Shown: piece by piece, positions 51,417 through 57,681 of the stretch
How positions within the stretch are numbered: position 1 is the stretch's first letter
Layout of the letters: each line of letters opens with the position of its first letter
NCBI GenBank assembly: GCA_937907425.1
Contig: CALCIE010000065.1
Location: forward strand, 6,191-70,190
Length of the DNA stretch: 64,000 bases
From: an uncultured Pseudomonadota bacterium
GTDB taxonomy: Bacteria > Pseudomonadota > Gammaproteobacteria > Burkholderiales > SG8-39
Direction: 5' to 3'
Translations under genes and position numbers: made by a program
The notes under the pieces: generated by a model
Told to the model about the DNA's origin: nothing
The model's database searches: none
The model's input: only the letters and a program-made list of their open reading frames with translations

Positions 51417-53159
51417 TCAGGTGCGCCGCGTGGGCACCGCGGCCGAGCCCGAATGCCCGGCGGCAGGCACGGTATAGCGTTCTTCGATGGCCTCGCGGAT
51501 GCGCGTGCGGCTCTCCTGCGGCGACAGGCCCGCGTCCGCCTCGATGTCGCGCACCTGGTCGGCGAGTTGTTCGTCCTTCACGCAGTCGCGCAGCCAGCGC
51601 GAATAGTCGCCCCGGCGCAGATGATGCGTCCAGGTGTCGTCGTCCACGCCTTCGGCGAGCTGGGAGAACAGCACGAGGTTCTGCGCCCGTAGATTGAGCT
51701 TTGCCTCCGGGCCGCGGAAATAGAAGCTGCGGTCGGGCGGCAGCTCGCCTTCGGCGTACTTGCGCCGGTGGCGGCGGCGCTCGCTCCGGCCGGGTTCGAC
51801 CGCGATGACGAAAGGCGGCGTGGGCTCGCCGCGGAACCACAGCAAGGCCTGCCCGGGTTCCAGCTCCAGCGGCTGCGCGGCAGGCGGCTCGGCCCCCGCC
51901 GCGCGTGCGAAGTTGCCGAGCGTTTCGCAGGGCTCTTCACCGAGCGCGGCGACCACATCCACGCCGCGCAGCACCTCCGGCGCCACCCAGTCCGGATGCA
52001 CGGTGACGTAGATCATCGAACTGAGTCCCTCCCCCAGCATCGACGAGGCCGCTTCCCAATCGGTAGGCAGCAGGTGATGCGTCTCGTCGACCAGGATCCA
52101 ATGCGGACGGCCGGTCTTGGAGCGCAGCTCCTGCAGGCGCGGCAGCAGGCCGAGGAAGAAGTCCGGGCGGTCCTGCAAGGGCAGGCCGACGAGGTTCACG
52201 ACCACGTTGGTCTGCGGCTTCTCGAGCGCGGTCAGCACTTCGTTCGCCGAAGGCCCGTGATCGTTGTCGCCGAACACGATCGCGTCCTCGAAGCCTTCGT
52301 AGTCGCCCTCGGGATCGATGACGCAGAACTGGTAGCCCTGCTTGCACAGCCGTTCCAGCACGCCGCTGGCGAACGTCGATTTGCCGCTGCCCGAGGAGCC
52401 GGCAACGAGCAGGTTGTGCCACGCCGGTGCGATGTAAACCGGCTCGCCGCCGCGCCGGCCGAGCAGCAACCGCCGTCTGCGGAGCGCCGCGCCGCGCAGG
52501 TCGTCCTCCACCAGCCGGCGGACGATCTCCGCCACGCCTCCGCCGTGCGGCATGGCGGTCACGAGATCCGCTTCGCGTTTGAGCATCGGCACCGCGTTGG
52601 CGACCGCGACGCCGCACTCGCAGCAATCGAGCAGCGCGTGGTCGTTCTCGGCATCGCCGATCGCCACCACGTTGTGGGGGGACAGCTTCATGTGCTCGAG
52701 CGCCGCGGCGAGGCCCGATGCCTTGTTGACGCCCGGCGGCAGCACCATCACCGCGCCCTTGTTGAAGATGAGCTGCAGTTCCAGGCCCAGCTCGCGGACG
52801 GTCTCGATCACCGTGACCTCGTGCGGGGTGACGGTGGCGACGATCGACGCGCCGATCTGCAGGGGCACGCCCTTGCGCTCGAGCGCCTGCACGAATTCGG
52901 GCGGCGGCGCTTCGCCGAGTACGATGCGTTCGCGCGTGCCCGGCCGGTAAAGCAGCGCGCCGTTCTCCGCCACCACCCAGTCGAACAGATCGATCTCGGG
53001 AAACACCTCGAGCAGCTCGTTCAACTCGCGGCCGGTGACGAGCAGCAGTTTGCGTCCGGTCGCGGCCGCCTGTTTGAGCGCTTCGAGCGTGTCCGGCGCC
53101 ACCTTCCCCGCGTGGGCGAGCGTGCCGTCGTAATCGATCGCCAGGGCCAGATAGCGCAT
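51417..53159 (-). CDS. Fusion protein: HAD-IIB (Cof-type) phosphatase domain plus HerA/FtsK-like P-loop ATPase domain
   Basis: HAD motifs DYDGT (aa 9-13), VTGR and GDAENDH. Then Walker A GSSGSGKST (aa 254-262), the HerA-like VIDPEGDY and Walker B WILVDETHH (aa 354-362). No SD precedes the ATG. Confidence 0.75.
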   Translation of the reverse strand: MRYLALAIDYDGTLAHAGKVAPDTLEALKQAAATGRKLLLVTGRELNELLEVFPEIDLFDWVVAENGALLYRPGTRERIVLGEAPPPEFVQALERKGVPLQIGASIVATVTPHEVTVIETVRELGLELQLIFNKGAVMVLPPGVNKASGLAAALEHMKLSPHNVVAIGDAENDHALLDCCECGVAVANAVPMLKREADLVTAMPHGGGVAEIVRRLVEDDLRGAALRRRRLLLGRRGGEPVYIAPAWHNLLVAGSSGSGKSTFASGVLERLCKQGYQFCVIDPEGDYEGFEDAIVFGDNDHGPSANEVLTALEKPQTNVVVNLVGLPLQDRPDFFLGLLPRLQELRSKTGRPHWILVDETHHLLPTDWEAASSMLGEGLSSMIYVTVHPDWVAPEVLRGVDVVAALGEEPCETLGNFARAAGAEPPAAQPLELEPGQALLWFRGEPTPPFVIAVEPGRSERRRHRRKYAEGELPPDRSFYFRGPEAKLNLRAQNLVLFSQLAEGVDDDTWTHHLRRGDYSRWLRDCVKDEQLADQVRDIEADAGLSPQESRTRIREAIEERYTVPAAGHSGSAAVPTRRT

Positions 53160-53418: not shown

Positions 53419-54597
53419 TCAGCCTTCGCGCGGTTCGCCGAGCCGGAAGCGCAGCCGGTTCACCGCCGCCGCCAGTACGGCGAGCGGCATCTCCTGCCGG
53501 CTGCGGCGCGTCCGGCGCCCGACCAGCGCCTCGAACACCGCTTCCTCGACCCCGGCTTCGCGGCAGGCTTCGGCAAAGGTGTGACGGAAGGAATCGAAGG
53601 TCTTGCGCCGGTCGCGGATGCCCACCGCGCCGCGCAGATAGCGGGCGAACCACTTCGACCAGTTGCCCGTGGGCTTGCCCTTGTTGTCCGGGCGCAATTC
53701 CGGAAACAGCCGCTGCTCCCCTGCCCTGCGCTGCATCTCCACGAACTGCAGGAAACCGAGGCGGATGAGGTCCGGATGGATGGGCACCGGCCGGCGCTCC
53801 GGTTCGCCCTTGCGCGTGTGCTCGGTGAGCATGTCGAGATACTTCACGCCCTCGGCCTCCCGGACGTCCTCCACCCGCAGGACGCCGATCTCGCCCTGCC
53901 GCGCACCGGTGTAGAGGGCGAGCAACGGCAGCCAGTAGGCCGCCGCTCCGGCGCCCGCGACGGGCCGTTCGCCCTGGGCGTATACCGGCGAGGCGAAAAT
54001 CGCCAGCAGTTCCTCGGGCGTGAACTCCACGCGCGGCCTGCGCCCGGGGCGCGCACCTTCGACGGTTATACCGCGCGCGGGATTGCGCGCGATCAGGCCG
54101 TCCTCGACCGCGAGTTGCAGCATGGCGGCGATAGCGCCGAGCTGTTTCTTGACCGTGCCGGCCGAAAGCCCTTCCGCGACCATCGCGTCGCGCATCGCCT
54201 CGATGTGACGCGGTTCGATCGCCTCGACCGCAAGACCGGGATGCAGGCTCACGAAACGGCTCGTGGCCTTGGCGAAGTCGTAAACGGTGGTGCGCGGCCG
54301 TTTCGCGCGTGCGTTCCAGCGCTCGAACAGGGCGCGCATGGCGCCTTCGGCCGCCGCATCCGGCGGCAAGGGCTTCACGCCGCGCGCCGCGCGTTCGGCT
54401 TCGCGCAGCCGGGCGAATTCCTCCTCCAGCCGCTGCGCTTCCAGGCGCGCGAGCCGCTGCGCCTCCAGCACATCGCGCGTGCCGAGCGACTTGCGCACTT
54501 CGTCGGTACCGAAATGCGCCCGCAGGGCTGCGGGGATTTTTTTGCGGAAGTAGTAGACCTCTCCTCGACGGAACAGAAACTTCGCGTCTGCTGCCAT
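53419..54597 (-). mobile_element. Tyrosine site-specific integrase (DUF6538-type N-terminus)
   Basis: 392 aa. MAADAKFLFRRGEVYYFRKKIP N-terminus and a C-terminal catalytic region with R..HxxR..Y elements (FRHTFAE; the end of the protein is not checked in detail). Confidence 0.85.
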
Positions 54598-54768: not shown

Positions 54769-55269
54769 TCATTCGCTGGCGAGCCACACCACTGCCAGGC
54801 CGCCCGCGAGCCCTGCGGGCAGGCCCACACGTTCGGCCCAGCCGCGACGGCCGCCGCTCACGGACTGGACCGGCACGGGCGTCAGTTTGATGAGTTGATC
54901 GACCAGCCGTCCCCTCCAGCCCAACCCCGCCGCGGGCTGTGCGCCGATGACGATGCGGTCGGGACTTTCGCGCCTGGCGAACCCGGCGATCGCCGCCGCG
55001 ATGTGACCGCGTGCCATATGCGTGCTGCAAGGAATGCCGGCGCTGCGCACGCGACGCGCCGCGACGGCCATGGCCGCACGGGCGCGGTCCAGACGCATCG
55101 CTTCGCACGCGCCCGCCCCGACGAAGCGGCTGACGTGGCGCGTCATGAGGGGTTGCACATTGAGCAGTTGAATCGAGGCATGGCCATGTTCCAGCGCATC
55201 GCGGATCGCCGCGTCCACCGCCTTCAGTGCACATTCGGAACCGTTGACCGGTACGAGGATTTTCAACAT
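54769..55269 (-). CDS. Universal stress protein (UspA family)
   Basis: MLKILVPVNGSECALKAVD ... the IVIGAQ pattern of Usp domains. Confidence 0.8.
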   Translation of the reverse strand: MLKILVPVNGSECALKAVDAAIRDALEHGHASIQLLNVQPLMTRHVSRFVGAGACEAMRLDRARAAMAVAARRVRSAGIPCSTHMARGHIAAAIAGFARRESPDRIVIGAQPAAGLGWRGRLVDQLIKLTPVPVQSVSGGRRGWAERVGLPAGLAGGLAVVWLASE

Positions 55270-55285: not shown

Positions 55286-55978
55286 TTAAGCGTTGCGTAC
55301 CGCCGGGGCGCGGCGGCGATTCCTGAGATACCCGAGACCGATCACACCGCCGATCACGGAGACGTACAGCGAGACGACGAAGGCCGGGTTGGCGGCCAGC
55401 ACATCGGCGACCAGAGGCTCGCCCGTAACCAGCTTCACGGCGGTCCACGCCAGCACCGCGGCACCCAGGTAGATGATCGCGGGGAAGCGTTCGATCAGCC
55501 GCAGGATGAGCCGCGATCCGCCGATTACGATGGGGATGCTGATCAACAGGCCCAGCACGACGAGCACGACGCTGCCGTGCGCTGCGCCGGCGATCGCCAG
55601 CACGTTGTCGAGCCCCATGACCGCATCGGCGATGACGATTGTCTTCATCGCGCCCCAGAAGGTCGTGGCGGAGGCGACATGGCCGTGCGAATCGTGCGAT
55701 TCGCCTGGCGCGACCAGCCGCCACGCGATCCAAACCAGCGCCAGACCGCCGGCGAGCATCAGGCCCGGCACCTTCAGCAGCCAGACCACGATCAGGGCCA
55801 TGGCGGCACGCATCGCGACGGCGCCGAAGGTGCCCCACAACACCGCCTTGCGCTGCAGATGAGCGGGGAGATTGCGCGCCGCGAGCGCGATGACGATCGC
55901 GTTGTCGCCCGCCAGCACGAGGTCGATCAGCACGATCGCCGCGAGCGCGGAGAAAAACTCCGGAGTGAACAGTTCCAT
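55286..55978 (-). CDS. TerC-family membrane protein, YjbE subgroup (putative Mn2+ exporter)
   Basis: LVLAGDNAIVIALAA and ADAVMGLDNVLAIAGAA are the duplicated TerC motifs. ATG 55978 follows AAGGAAG and is preceded by a Mn2+ riboswitch. Confidence 0.85.
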   Translation of the reverse strand: MELFTPEFFSALAAIVLIDLVLAGDNAIVIALAARNLPAHLQRKAVLWGTFGAVAMRAAMALIVVWLLKVPGLMLAGGLALVWIAWRLVAPGESHDSHGHVASATTFWGAMKTIVIADAVMGLDNVLAIAGAAHGSVVLVVLGLLISIPIVIGGSRLILRLIERFPAIIYLGAAVLAWTAVKLVTGEPLVADVLAANPAFVVSLYVSVIGGVIGLGYLRNRRRAPAVRNA

Positions 55979-56033
55979 CGACTTCCTTTCCGGCGGACCG
56001 CGAGGATCGCAACCGGCCGGGCACGATCCGCCA

Positions 56034-56150
56034 CCTTTGCCCGAATCCGGCAAAGGTCTCGCTCGTGCGCGGCGGCCCCGACGACCGGAGAGGGAATCTC
56101 GCAATGACGATCGCCGGCGGGAATCGCTTCCCGGAGCTACTCCCCTTTGA
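56034..56150 (-). promoter_or_regulatory. yybP-ykoY Mn2+ riboswitch (aptamer about 56049-56150, platform hairpin 56034-56056)
   Basis: AAAGGGGAGUAGC (56136-56148 on the plus strand, as reverse complement), the internal CGUCAUUGCG, and the 3' strand GAGCGAGACCUUUGCC (56049-64). CCUUUGCC can pair with the downstream GGCAAAGG. Confidence 0.85.
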
Positions 56151-56226
56151 AGGGTTCCCCGCCGCATGTCGCGCGACGGGTTGCGACGATCTTGCGCAAA
56201 GGCGGGAAGGAAAGGAAACGAAGCTT

Positions 56227-56254
56227 CGCAATGCGGCCATTGCGACACGCAATG
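56227..56254. promoter_or_regulatory. Three phased 7-mers CGCAATG / CATTGCG / CGCAATG (candidate operator)
   Basis: Located at 56227-33, 56238-44 and 56248-54, with start-to-start spacing of 11 and 10 bp. They form two overlapping perfect inverted repeats between the divergent transcription units. Confidence 0.5.
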
Positions 56255-56307
56255 AGGAAAGACGGAACTCCCGGGCCCGAACCCGGTCTGCTACGAAGTC
56301 GCGGCTC

Positions 56308-56439
56308 CCAAAGGGGAGTAGCAAGGCGCAAGGGCCGTCAATTCGGAGAAGATGATCCCGGCCCTGCGGGCAGACGAACGTCTGTGAGCGAGACCTTTGC
56401 CGCCGGCAGCGCTGCGATGCAGCAGTCCGCCCGGCAAAG
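56308..56439 (+). promoter_or_regulatory. Second yybP-ykoY Mn2+ riboswitch, upstream of the LysR gene
   Basis: AAAGGGGAGUAGC at 56310-22, GGGCCGUCAAUUCGG, the CAGAC-GAAC-GUCUG hairpin and GAGCGAGACCUUUGCC at 56386-401. CUUUGCCG (56395-402) is complementary to CGGCAAAG (56432-39). Confidence 0.8.
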
Positions 56440-56476
56440 CCGTTCCGTCAATCGCCACAGACGAGGAGATTTCGTC

Positions 56477-57472
56477 ATGCTCGACCGTCGCCTGCGCCGC
56501 TATCTGCGGCACGGCATGCTGCCGCAGCTCGCCGCCTTCGAAGCGGTCGTCCGACTGGGCGGCTTCACCCGCGCCGCCGAAGCGCTGCATCTGGCGCAGC
56601 CGACCGTTTCCCTGCTCGTCAAGAAGCTCGGCGAAGCTCTCGGCGTTGTGCTGTTCGAGTCCACCGCCCCGGTGCGGCTCACCCCCGCCGGGCAGGAAAC
56701 CTACCGCTTCTGCCAGGATTTCTACGAGCGCTGCTCGACCTTCGATCAGCGGCTGGCGCAGTTCAAGAATTCCCCGCCCGATACGCTGCGCATCGTCGCC
56801 TGCACGGCGGCCGAGTCGATCGCGCCCCTGCTGCTGGACAGCTTCTGCAGCCTGCACCCCGAGGTCCGGCTGGTGCTCTCGGTCGCGAACCGCGAAACCA
56901 TGCTGGAACGCTTCCACGCCCGGACCGACGACTTCTACATCTTCGGCGCGCCCGTCGCGCTGGACGCGAGCTTCCATCCGCTGCAGGAAGACGAACTGCA
57001 CTTTTACGCTTCGGTCGCCCACCCTTACGCGCGCCGCCGCGGACTCCGGCTCGAAGCGCTCGCGCGCGAGCCGATCCTGGGACGGGAACCGGGTTCGGCG
57101 TCGCGCACGGCGCTGGAGGAAGTCTTCGCGCCGCTGGGCGGCTGCAGTCTGCGTTTGGAAATGGACGACGACGCGACCATCAAGCGCGCGGTCGCCGCGG
57201 GCCTGGGCGTGGCTTTGCTGTCCCGCTACGCCGTCGCGGAAAACCCGCGCCACGACGCGCTCGTCCCGTTAAAGGTGGAAGGATTGCCGTTGAAACGGCG
57301 CTGGCAGCTCGTGCATCGCGCGCAGGATGCGCGCTCGCCCGTGGCCGAAGCGTTCATCGCCGCGCTCACCGCCAAGGCCCGGCAGCTCGAAGAACGCTAT
57401 TTCAACACCCCGGCCGTCGCCGGCCGGCGGATACCGCATGCGGAGGTGCTGACCCGCGCGGGATCGGGATAA
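56477..57472 (+). CDS. LysR-family transcriptional regulator
   Basis: HTH region LAAFEAVVRLGGFTRAAEALHLAQPTVSLLVKKLGEALGVVLFE. ATG 56477 lies 8 nt after GAGGAG. Confidence 0.85.
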   Translation: MLDRRLRRYLRHGMLPQLAAFEAVVRLGGFTRAAEALHLAQPTVSLLVKKLGEALGVVLFESTAPVRLTPAGQETYRFCQDFYERCSTFDQRLAQFKNSPPDTLRIVACTAAESIAPLLLDSFCSLHPEVRLVLSVANRETMLERFHARTDDFYIFGAPVALDASFHPLQEDELHFYASVAHPYARRRGLRLEALAREPILGREPGSASRTALEEVFAPLGGCSLRLEMDDDATIKRAVAAGLGVALLSRYAVAENPRHDALVPLKVEGLPLKRRWQLVHRAQDARSPVAEAFIAALTAKARQLEERYFNTPAVAGRRIPHAEVLTRAGSG

Positions 57473-57548
57473 GGCCTCGCGCGCACGCGGCCGTAGAACG
57501 CGCCGGTTCGACGGCGAACGCCGGTGTCACACGTCGGTTGAACGGGCA

Positions 57549-57575
57549 ATAAAAAACCGGCCTTGCGGCCGGTTT
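57549..57575 (-). terminator. Intrinsic terminator after the tRNA-like gene
   Basis: The minus strand reads AAACCGGCC-GCAA-GGCCGGUU-UUUUAUU. Confidence 0.8.
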
Positions 57576-57583
57576 CGAGAATC

Positions 57584-57681
<98 letters not shown>

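Follow-up and report, generated by a model that had tools for sequence, protein, structure and literature searches.

We analysed a stretch of 64,000 nt from an uncultured Pseudomonadota bacterium (Burkholderiales lineage SG8-39; contig CALCIE010000065.1, positions 6,191 to 70,190 of the forward strand), hereafter the window, in which a terC–usp operon and a gene for a LysR-type transcriptional regulator (lysR) diverge and are each preceded by an element resembling the aptamer of the Mn2+ (yybP-ykoY) riboswitch class. The two elements stand back to back and face outwards, 157 nt apart, the one on the minus strand (minus copy) towards terC and the one on the plus strand (plus copy) towards lysR (Table 1). 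Both carry three hallmarks that can be read from the sequence, namely AAAGGGGAGUAGC, an L3 segment containing CGUCA, and GAGCGAGACCUUUGCC. An earlier sequence-only reading of the window had described the sequences and positions of both elements, the three hallmarks, a TerC/YjbE gene followed by usp behind the minus copy, a LysR-type regulator beginning 75 nt beyond the end of the plus copy, and a single 157-bp control region shared by the two aptamers. All of these points agreed with the coordinates, domain matches and family models obtained here.

The terC product was matched by TIGR03717 (R_switched_YjbE) with 221 bits, against a cut-off of 134.8. The name of this TIGRFAM records that the vicinity of yjbE to this riboswitch motif had been noticed before; if the strands were disregarded, the aptamer would be assigned to terC. 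LysR comprises an N-terminal HTH_1 domain and a LysR substrate-binding domain. No NCBIfam model reached its cut-off for this protein, the top match being CbbR-like with 152 bits against a cut-off of 450. The lysR start codon, an ATG at 56477, is backed by an N-terminus (MLDRRLRRY) and a GGAGGA-type Shine–Dalgarno sequence (SD) that are kept in 10 members of the clade to which the window belongs. The public gene call for lysR (362 aa) begins at a GTG at 56384, within the 3′ strand of the aptamer, and the LysR proteins of several relatives are likewise called with 340–342 aa rather than ∼320 aa; automated annotation absorbs the riboswitch into the lysR open reading frame (ORF).

Table 1. Features of the divergent terC–lysR locus, with positions in the window
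Feature	Position	Strand	Basis
usp, for a universal stress protein, 16 nt beyond terC	54769–55269	−	Pfam Usp 8.8e-13
terC, YjbE-subfamily TerC membrane protein, first gene of the terC–usp operon	55286–55978	−	Pfam TerC 1.3e-48
terC leader and expression platform	55979–56048	−	Consensus structure of 10 leaders
terC-facing aptamer, assigned to the Mn2+ (yybP-ykoY) class	56049–56150	−	Models R1/R2, constrained fold, orthologous copies
Divergent control region, 157 nt, with putative LysR operator	56151–56307		Motif conservation and enrichment
lysR-facing aptamer, assigned to the Mn2+ class, three-way-junction variant without P2	56308–56401	+	R2, R1, fold, clade covariation
lysR leader and expression platform	56402–56476	+	Duplex energies, comparison with relatives
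lysR, LysR-type transcriptional regulator, 331 aa	56477–57472	+	Pfam HTH_1 (PF00126) 7e-19, LysR_substrate (PF03466) 2e-40

Aptamer class and secondary structure

Two covariance models were built from lysR-facing elements of related loci (numbered with the prefix L), one from 13 loci with the sequences of the window, L001 and L013 left out (R1) and one from eight relatives lacking helix P2, with the window left out (R2). In a search space of 330 kb, R1 matched the minus copy with 54.6 bits (E 5e-10) and the plus copy with 30.8 bits (E 2e-4), and recovered all 42 lysR-facing elements. R2, run with filters off, ranked the plus copy as its top match in the 64-kb window (59.8 bits, E 1.5e-13), scored the minus copy at 33.1 bits and found no third copy in the window. 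Both Escherichia coli K-12 members of the class were also recovered, the alx leader (L046 1875–2001) by R1 with 36.5 bits (E 1.5e-6) and by R2 with 34.7 bits, and the mntP leader (L045 962–1074) by R1 with 28.4 bits (E 1.2e-4, filters off), each at its expected place in the 5′ untranslated region (−206 to −80 and −224 to −115 relative to the coding sequences). The matches to the aptamer models are far beyond chance, and with the window sequence left out of both models we consider it very likely that the two elements are genuine aptamers of the Mn2+ class, as the sequence-only reading had proposed; Mn2+ would then be the ligand of both.

Constrained single-sequence folds, in which only L1 and L3 were held unpaired, gave the same order of helices, P1.1-L1-P1.2-(P2)-P3.1-L3-P3.2-P4, for all 46 elements (the two window copies and 44 relatives). 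Both window copies show the two-leg architecture of P1.1-L1-P1.2 and P3.1-L3-P3.2 at a multi-helix junction, which allows L1 to dock on L3. In the minus copy, P1.1 (CAAAGG/CCUUUG) and L1 (GGAGUAG) are followed by P2 (CGGGAA-GCGA-UUCCCG) and by P3.1, L3 (UCAUUGC) and P3.2, with a vestigial P4 of 2 bp. In the plus copy, the first leg consists of P1.1 (CAAAGG/CCUUUG), L1 (GGAGUAG) and P1.2 (GC/GC) and the second of P3.1 (CGCA-GGGCCG/CGGCCC-UGCG), L3 (UCAAUUC) and P3.2 (GGA/UCC), completed by P4 (CAGACG-AA-CGUCUG), while a linker of 4–9 nt stands where P2 would be, the same absence of P2 being found in all lysR-facing copies of the clade. Neither copy thus forms a complete four-way junction, and both are reduced variants of the Mn2+ class rather than standard members. 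P2 and P4 are peripheral helices that occur commonly in the family with varying lengths and take no part in the metal site.

L1 (GGAGUAG on the 5′ side and GAGA on the 3′ side) shows no variation in either window copy or in the alignments, CGUCA in L3 is invariant in an alignment of 31 elements, and an L3 of the GUCA/GACA type could be located in 46 of 46 elements. The same L1 GGAGUAG and L3 CGUCA, with the adenine that contacts Mn2+, are shared by the crystallised aptamers of Lactococcus lactis yoaB and Bacillus subtilis yybP/ykoY (PMC11672702). The invariant L3 adenine of the L. lactis RNA is A41, whose N7 makes the Mn2+-selective contact (PMC11672702), and its equivalents lie at 56340 in the plus copy and at 56105 in the minus copy.

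When the 46 elements were aligned to a covariance model, 94.3% of the cells held standard pairs, compared with 33–49% in slid controls, and compensatory changes on both sides were seen at 31 of 42 pairs, values of pairing and covariation that none of 500 shuffles reached. This alignment is fitted to the structure, which favours the pairing figures, while the single-sequence folds are independent of such fitting. Covariation backs P1.2, P2, P3.1, P3.2 and P4, and within the P2-less lysR-facing copies of the clade 98.9% of cells were paired, with compensatory changes at 9 of 28 pairs. A combination of MAFFT and RNAalifold on 31 elements had given P3 alone, the helix lengths being too variable, and was replaced by the constrained folds and the covariance-model alignment. 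The two window copies also share inverted repeats of 14 and 17 nt, but these are the family-invariant strands of L1 and P1 and therefore provide no evidence of a recent duplication.

Leaders and divergent control region

In both window leaders the 3′ strand of P1.1 can form a second helix with the expression platform that is mutually exclusive with the aptamer. In the terC leader, the anti-P1 strand GGCAAAGG (plus-strand positions 56034–56041) forms a hairpin with the 3′ P1 strand (56049–56056), downstream of which lie a GGCGGA...UCCGCC stem and then the SD GGAAAGGAAG (55982–55991). The consensus structure of 10 terC-facing leaders contains this anti-P1 hairpin (CUUUGCC-loop-GGCAAAG), in which the leader of L013 carries a single compensatory change from U-A to C-G. 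The output of the terC leader may lie in translation or in Rho-dependent control.

For the lysR-facing leaders the alignment was too poor for a consensus fold, and a targeted analysis of duplexes was used. The window lysR leader holds an anti-P1 strand, CGGCAAAG (56432–56439), complementary to the 3′ P1 strand, and an anti-aptamer element made up of GUC (56447–56449) and UCGCCACA (56452–56459), which pairs with the aptamer 3′ strand UGUGAGCGAGAC at −11.9 kcal/mol, the duplex stopping 16 nt short of the AUG. Within the clade, in which the leader is longer, the window element departs from that of the relatives on both strands: at 8 of 10 loci UGCAAGCGAGAC pairs with UUUUCGCUUGCAG at −14 to −18.5 kcal/mol, ending 19–22 nt before the AUG. 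The window SD, GAGGAG (56463–56468), lies in the loop of a GACGA/UCGUC hairpin (56460–56476). Without ligand, the leader is predicted to adopt a long composite hairpin (∼56385–56459) that consumes the 3′ half of the aptamer and abuts the SD. The sequence-only reading had noted a second complementary partner of the 3′ P1 strand and no U-tract downstream of both aptamers, and had suggested one shared expression platform. The anti-P1 strand is indeed present in both leaders, and a terminator scan of the window found no U-tract terminator in either, but the common platform holds only in part, the lysR leader having in addition the covarying anti-aptamer element beside its SD.

The sharing of the P1.1 3′ strand with the expression platform is also known from L. 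lactis yoaB and B. subtilis yybP/ykoY (PMC11672702), which, unlike the window copies, have intrinsic terminators and full four-way junctions. In lacking an intrinsic terminator the window resembles E. coli mntP, which works on translation initiation coupled to Rho (PMC11647493).

At 32 of 39 loci with a single, lysR-facing aptamer, the 3′ P1 strand pairs best with a segment overlapping the lysR start codon or at most 12 nt away from it, in SD-sequestering forms such as CCUUUGCC-loop-GGYAAAGG-N6-AUG or CCUUUGCCUUCC pairing with GAGGAAYGGCAAUG. In two-state folding, locking P1 left the SD and AUG more open than did blocking its 5′ strand (the apo state) in 13 of 13 SD-sequestor loci, and the SD opened in the bound state in six of nine clade leaders. 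The 32 loci have the geometry of an ON switch that acts on translation. Another, third group with one aptamer per locus (L023, L024, L026, L028, L031, L035 and L042) has long lysR leaders of 71–102 nt with a local anti-P1/anti-L1 hairpin (e.g. UGGCAUCGGUCC) directly after the aptamer, which resembles the terC leader of the window more than the SD-sequestor type.

The spacer between the two aptamers contains a palindrome, TCGCAATG-CGGC-CATTGCGA (56226–56245), that is kept in the clade, and additional half-sites CGCAAT (56248–56253) and TTGCGA (56181–56186). As a search for perfect palindromes was too strict, we measured the enrichment of the self-complementary core TYGCRA, which occurs 11.6 times per kb in 48 intergenic regions compared with 0.99 times per kb outside them, a 12-fold enrichment, and clusters 65–135 nt upstream of the lysR-facing aptamer. 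The motif fits a putative LysR operator shared by divergent promoters, to whose boxes LysR would bind. Weak −10-like hexamers are found at 56189–56194 (CAAGAT, minus strand, for terC) and 56292–56297 (TACGAA, for lysR), which offer candidate positions for the promoters and transcription start sites. In relatives, GCGCTATACT lies 15–20 nt upstream of the lysR-facing aptamer and would place the aptamer at the 5′ end of the lysR mRNA.

Conservation of the module and its surroundings

Reference genomes searched with the LysR protein yielded 44 loci, mostly from metagenome-assembled genomes of Burkholderiales and Nitrosomonadales together with Ideonella, Aquabacterium and Caldimonas. The usp–terC pair was divergent from the lysR homolog in 41 of the 44 loci, over a range of LysR identity of 37–61%, and usp was syntenic in 36 by tblastn. 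An aptamer on the lysR strand, ending 18–120 nt before the start codon, was present in 42 of the 44 loci, and the GGGAGUAG...CGUCA...AGACCUUUGCC element occurred on that strand in all loci but two non-syntenic ones. The sequence-only reading had suggested checking whether orthologous loci keep an aptamer in front of the LysR gene; nearly all of them do, and the plus copy represents a leader element that is conserved with that gene.

The terC-facing copy, on the other hand, is confined to the clade of the window, which comprises ∼10 distinct loci. Among reference genomes it was found in the window, L001 and L013, and it was present in every complete clade locus (L047, L048, L049, L050, L052–L055 and L057; LysR identity 49–61%), where both copies occurred together. 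Searches with filters off of 16 representative single-aptamer loci found no terC-facing aptamer and exactly one aptamer each, on the lysR strand, so that hidden terC-facing copies in such loci were rejected. The lysR-facing aptamer is therefore the conserved element and the terC-facing copy a clade-specific addition, which turns around the earlier view of the lysR-facing copy as an oddity beside a textbook terC copy. Orthologous copies were 76% identical compared with 58–65% for the two copies of one locus; this marks both lineages as old and as maintained apart from each other, and a recent inverted duplication was rejected as the origin of the pair.

In L049 (2285–2419, plus strand), the 5′ P1 strand and L1 (CCCAAAGGGGAGUAGC) of the lysR-facing aptamer have been lost and the remainder has been kept (17.8 bits by R1), with the terC-facing copy retained; the loss is explained by natural decay or else by faulty assembly.

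The flanks of the module vary among related loci and often hold metal-related genes, for example those for CusF, a copper-binding protein and ArsC in L049 and for ChrB and a chromate transporter in L052 and L053. In the window, a gene of the phage-integrase family with a DUF6538 domain (53419–54597, minus strand) adjoins usp, and the usp–terC–lysR module is placed between this integrase gene and a broken tRNA. The latter (57584–57680, minus strand, between lysR and gltX) appears to be a chimeric pseudo-tRNA in which a 5′ half like that of tRNA-Ala(GGC) is joined to the anticodon arm, T arm and 3′ end of tRNA-Glu(UUC), leaving acceptor strands that are unable to pair (5′ GGGGUAU and 3′ UGGGGAC). 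It was called by Rfam as a tRNA with a 24-nt insert (35.1 bits) and by ARAGORN as tRNA-Glu at 57584–57656, and a strong terminator follows it at ∼57548–57570. These surroundings hint at a mobile or accessory region for metal stress of which the module is part. A blastn search of a plasmid collection with the control region and a representative aptamer gave no match. In the Ideonella-like loci, a gene for the signal recognition particle (SRP) RNA lies just downstream of usp (L025 1261–1357, L036 1220–1316 and L037 1119–1215, all on the minus strand), and is a conserved housekeeping neighbour of the module in that group. Further away in the window, a 580-aa ORF (51417–53159, minus strand) encodes an unusual fusion of an N-terminal HAD-type hydrolase (Hydrolase_3, S6PP) and a region like the HerA/DUF87 AAA ATPases.

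Regulatory interpretation

Burkholderiales-type betaproteobacteria have a conserved module in which an aptamer precedes lysR, divergent from terC–usp, and we propose that each aptamer acts in cis on the gene that it faces; for the plus copy and lysR we consider this quite probable. Binding of Mn2+ would dock L1 on L3 and lock P1.1, which would withdraw the 3′ strand GAGCGAGACCUUUGCC from the competing helix of the leader. In most species the competing partner would be the lysR SD or start codon, so that Mn2+ would turn LysR translation on. In the window the partners would be CGGCAAAG and GUC/UCGCCACA, which abut the SD, and the most likely outcome would be a Mn2+-dependent opening of the ribosome-binding region, possibly together with escape from Rho as in E. 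coli mntP. An ON direction in the window would be expected from the geometry of the homologous loci, from the characterised members, which are all ON switches, and from the mntP precedent. LysR would in turn bind the TCGCAAT/ATTGCGA boxes of the spacer and control terC–usp, and because terC has no aptamer of its own in most species, Mn2+ would reach it there through this LysR relay. In the clade of the window, terC would need Mn2+ twice, through the synthesis of LysR and through its own leader, in a coherent, AND-like feed-forward arrangement. Taken as a whole, cis-acting Mn2+ aptamers with a LysR relay to terC–usp are probably the best explanation of the locus, while for the step in which LysR relays the signal to terC the chances appear to be about even.

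Several observations weigh against this explanation. The RF00080 model used (Rfam 15 ‘Manganese’, 177 positions, with P1 unpaired in the consensus and a U-rich tail) scored the minus copy at 32.5 bits (E 4e-7), under its gathering score of 45, and gave no match to the plus copy even at E ≤ 10, so that the plus copy formally failed the check that the sequence-only reading had suggested. The same model, however, scored the validated mntP riboswitch of E. coli at 41.6 bits, under its own cut-off of 45, did not report the validated alx riboswitch at E ≤ 0.01 and missed every homologous element of 20 related loci; the check is therefore uninformative here, and the independent models reverse its outcome. 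With P2 absent from the plus copy and P4 almost absent from the minus copy, ligand binding by such reduced forms is a prediction. The SD of the window lysR leader did not open upon locking of P1 (accessibility of 0.38 in the bound and 0.47 in the apo state), the terC SD was not obviously sequestered and two-state folding of the terC leaders was mixed. Consensus promoter and terminator scans, which also covered two relatives, gave nothing useful and detected neither a sigma-70 promoter nor a terminator in the window control region, and a lysR transcript that starts upstream of 56308 and so includes the aptamer is presumed. Control of terC by LysR is suggested by the divergent arrangement and the motif enrichment, and the loss of the 5′ P1 and L1 strand in L049 shows that the lysR-facing element can decay.

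The two aptamers may both function while LysR regulates other genes or only itself and terC–usp depends solely on its own promoter and aptamer, in which case the region between them would amount to an ordinary divergent arrangement. The differing flanks of the module, the absence of a characterised equivalog of LysR and the fact that binding of LysR to the spacer is predicted from sequence would all fit such independent units. LysR-type regulators, however, typically control the divergent gene, and here the divergence of terC–usp is retained across the whole range of LysR identity, with the enriched palindromic motif kept between the genes even though terC mostly has no aptamer of its own; we therefore regard independence as unlikely. 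It is less likely still that the switch has the opposite sign or acts at another level, with Mn2+ freeing a C-rich segment (∼56420–56460) that loads Rho or otherwise lowering LysR, which would amount to negative feedback. The window leader lends some colour to this possibility, as its SD does not open in two-state folding, it has no terminator and the segment freed by P1 formation is C-rich, and Rho does act on the mntP leader of E. coli (PMC11647493). Against it stand the ON geometry of 32 of 39 homologous loci, the opening in 13 of 13 controls and in six of nine clade leaders, and the ON direction of every characterised Mn2+ riboswitch (PMC11672702, PMC11647493).

It is hardly credible that the plus copy is merely left over from a duplicated aptamer, without function and in decay. 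Although it lacks P2 and fails RF00080, and L049 has lost the 5′ strand, the P2-less form recurs in nine further loci with invariant L1 and L3, near-complete pairing and compensatory changes, the lysR-facing position is ancestral, the anti-aptamer element covaries with the plus copy, and the two copies of one locus are no more alike than orthologous copies. We also consider it improbable that the aptamers sense something else, such as Ca2+ or a pH-dependent folding as has been reported for relatives. The leader of E. coli alx, itself a TerC gene, is known as pH-responsive, and selectivity could be changed by the reduction of P2 and P4; the mgtA member of Streptococcus pneumoniae also responds to Ca2+ (PMC11672702). 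The residues of the metal site in L1 and L3, including the A41-equivalent adenine, are nevertheless invariant in all 46 elements, and TerC-family proteins are related to Mn2+, with E. coli Alx annotated as a Mn2+ exporter.

The proposed relay of Mn2+ through LysR to terC–usp can be compared with several known systems. In E. coli, mntP is under Mn2+ control at the protein level by MntR and at the RNA level by its riboswitch (PMC11647493). The combination of both levels that the sequence-only reading had pointed out is thus already known for one gene, and what is unusual here is the regulator gene behind the riboswitch: in E. coli it is the transporter gene that has the riboswitch in front of it, and MntR itself senses Mn2+. 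The window terC shares its family with alx, but in contrast to E. coli, terC has no aptamer in most of the related species and P2 is missing from the plus copy. Among other ligand classes there are known cases of riboswitches acting on regulators, such as the c-di-GMP-I riboswitch upstream of tfoY in Vibrio cholerae. An adenosylcobalamin riboswitch contained in a small RNA sequesters EutV (cited in PMC7266159). In these cascades, as in our proposal, an RNA that senses a ligand determines the amount or activity of a regulator that then controls other genes, but the ligands and the regulator families are different. Tandem riboswitches likewise apply two aptamers for the same ligand to one output (here terC) and could sharpen a dose response, but they place both aptamers in series in one mRNA, whereas the window aptamers lie on opposite strands, each facing its own gene in one of two transcripts, and would be coupled through a protein relay. 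The Mn2+ class has been reported to be without tandem arrangements despite more than 5,000 members (PMC9481103).

Mn2+ riboswitches have been described as direct gates on genes for transporters and membrane proteins, and a regulon survey of 2013 listed transporter-type targets only. The sequence-only reading knew of no ion riboswitch that gates a transcription factor, and our search of the full-text literature found no elemental-ion riboswitch in front of a LysR-type regulator, although an earlier mention is possible, the founding papers of 2015 lying outside the coverage. The locus differs from the described cases in its LysR-type target without a curated equivalog, in the divergent pairing of the aptamers and in the loss of P2.

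It is only a tentative suggestion that the RNA-to-protein relay is the main route of TerC induction in many betaproteobacteria, that the second aptamer of the clade converts it into a two-sensor feed-forward and that the P2-less form is functional. Rfam-based annotation with the RF00080 model used here under-calls this riboswitch class and misses the elements described above. The reduced aptamers, without P2 or almost without P4, may define a smaller functional core for structural work, and a functional three-way-junction form without P2 would be established if the proposal is true. The dual form is a natural setting in which to test how a dose response is shaped by a pair of sensors of the same ion, and would give an AND-like, sharpened response that other riboswitch classes reach through tandem aptamers. 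If true, the proposal would explain how Mn2+ induces TerC where terC has no riboswitch, and would add an RNA-to-protein relay to bacterial metal homeostasis; the aptamer class is consistently placed ahead of a gene for a transcription factor, in 42 or more species-level genomes.

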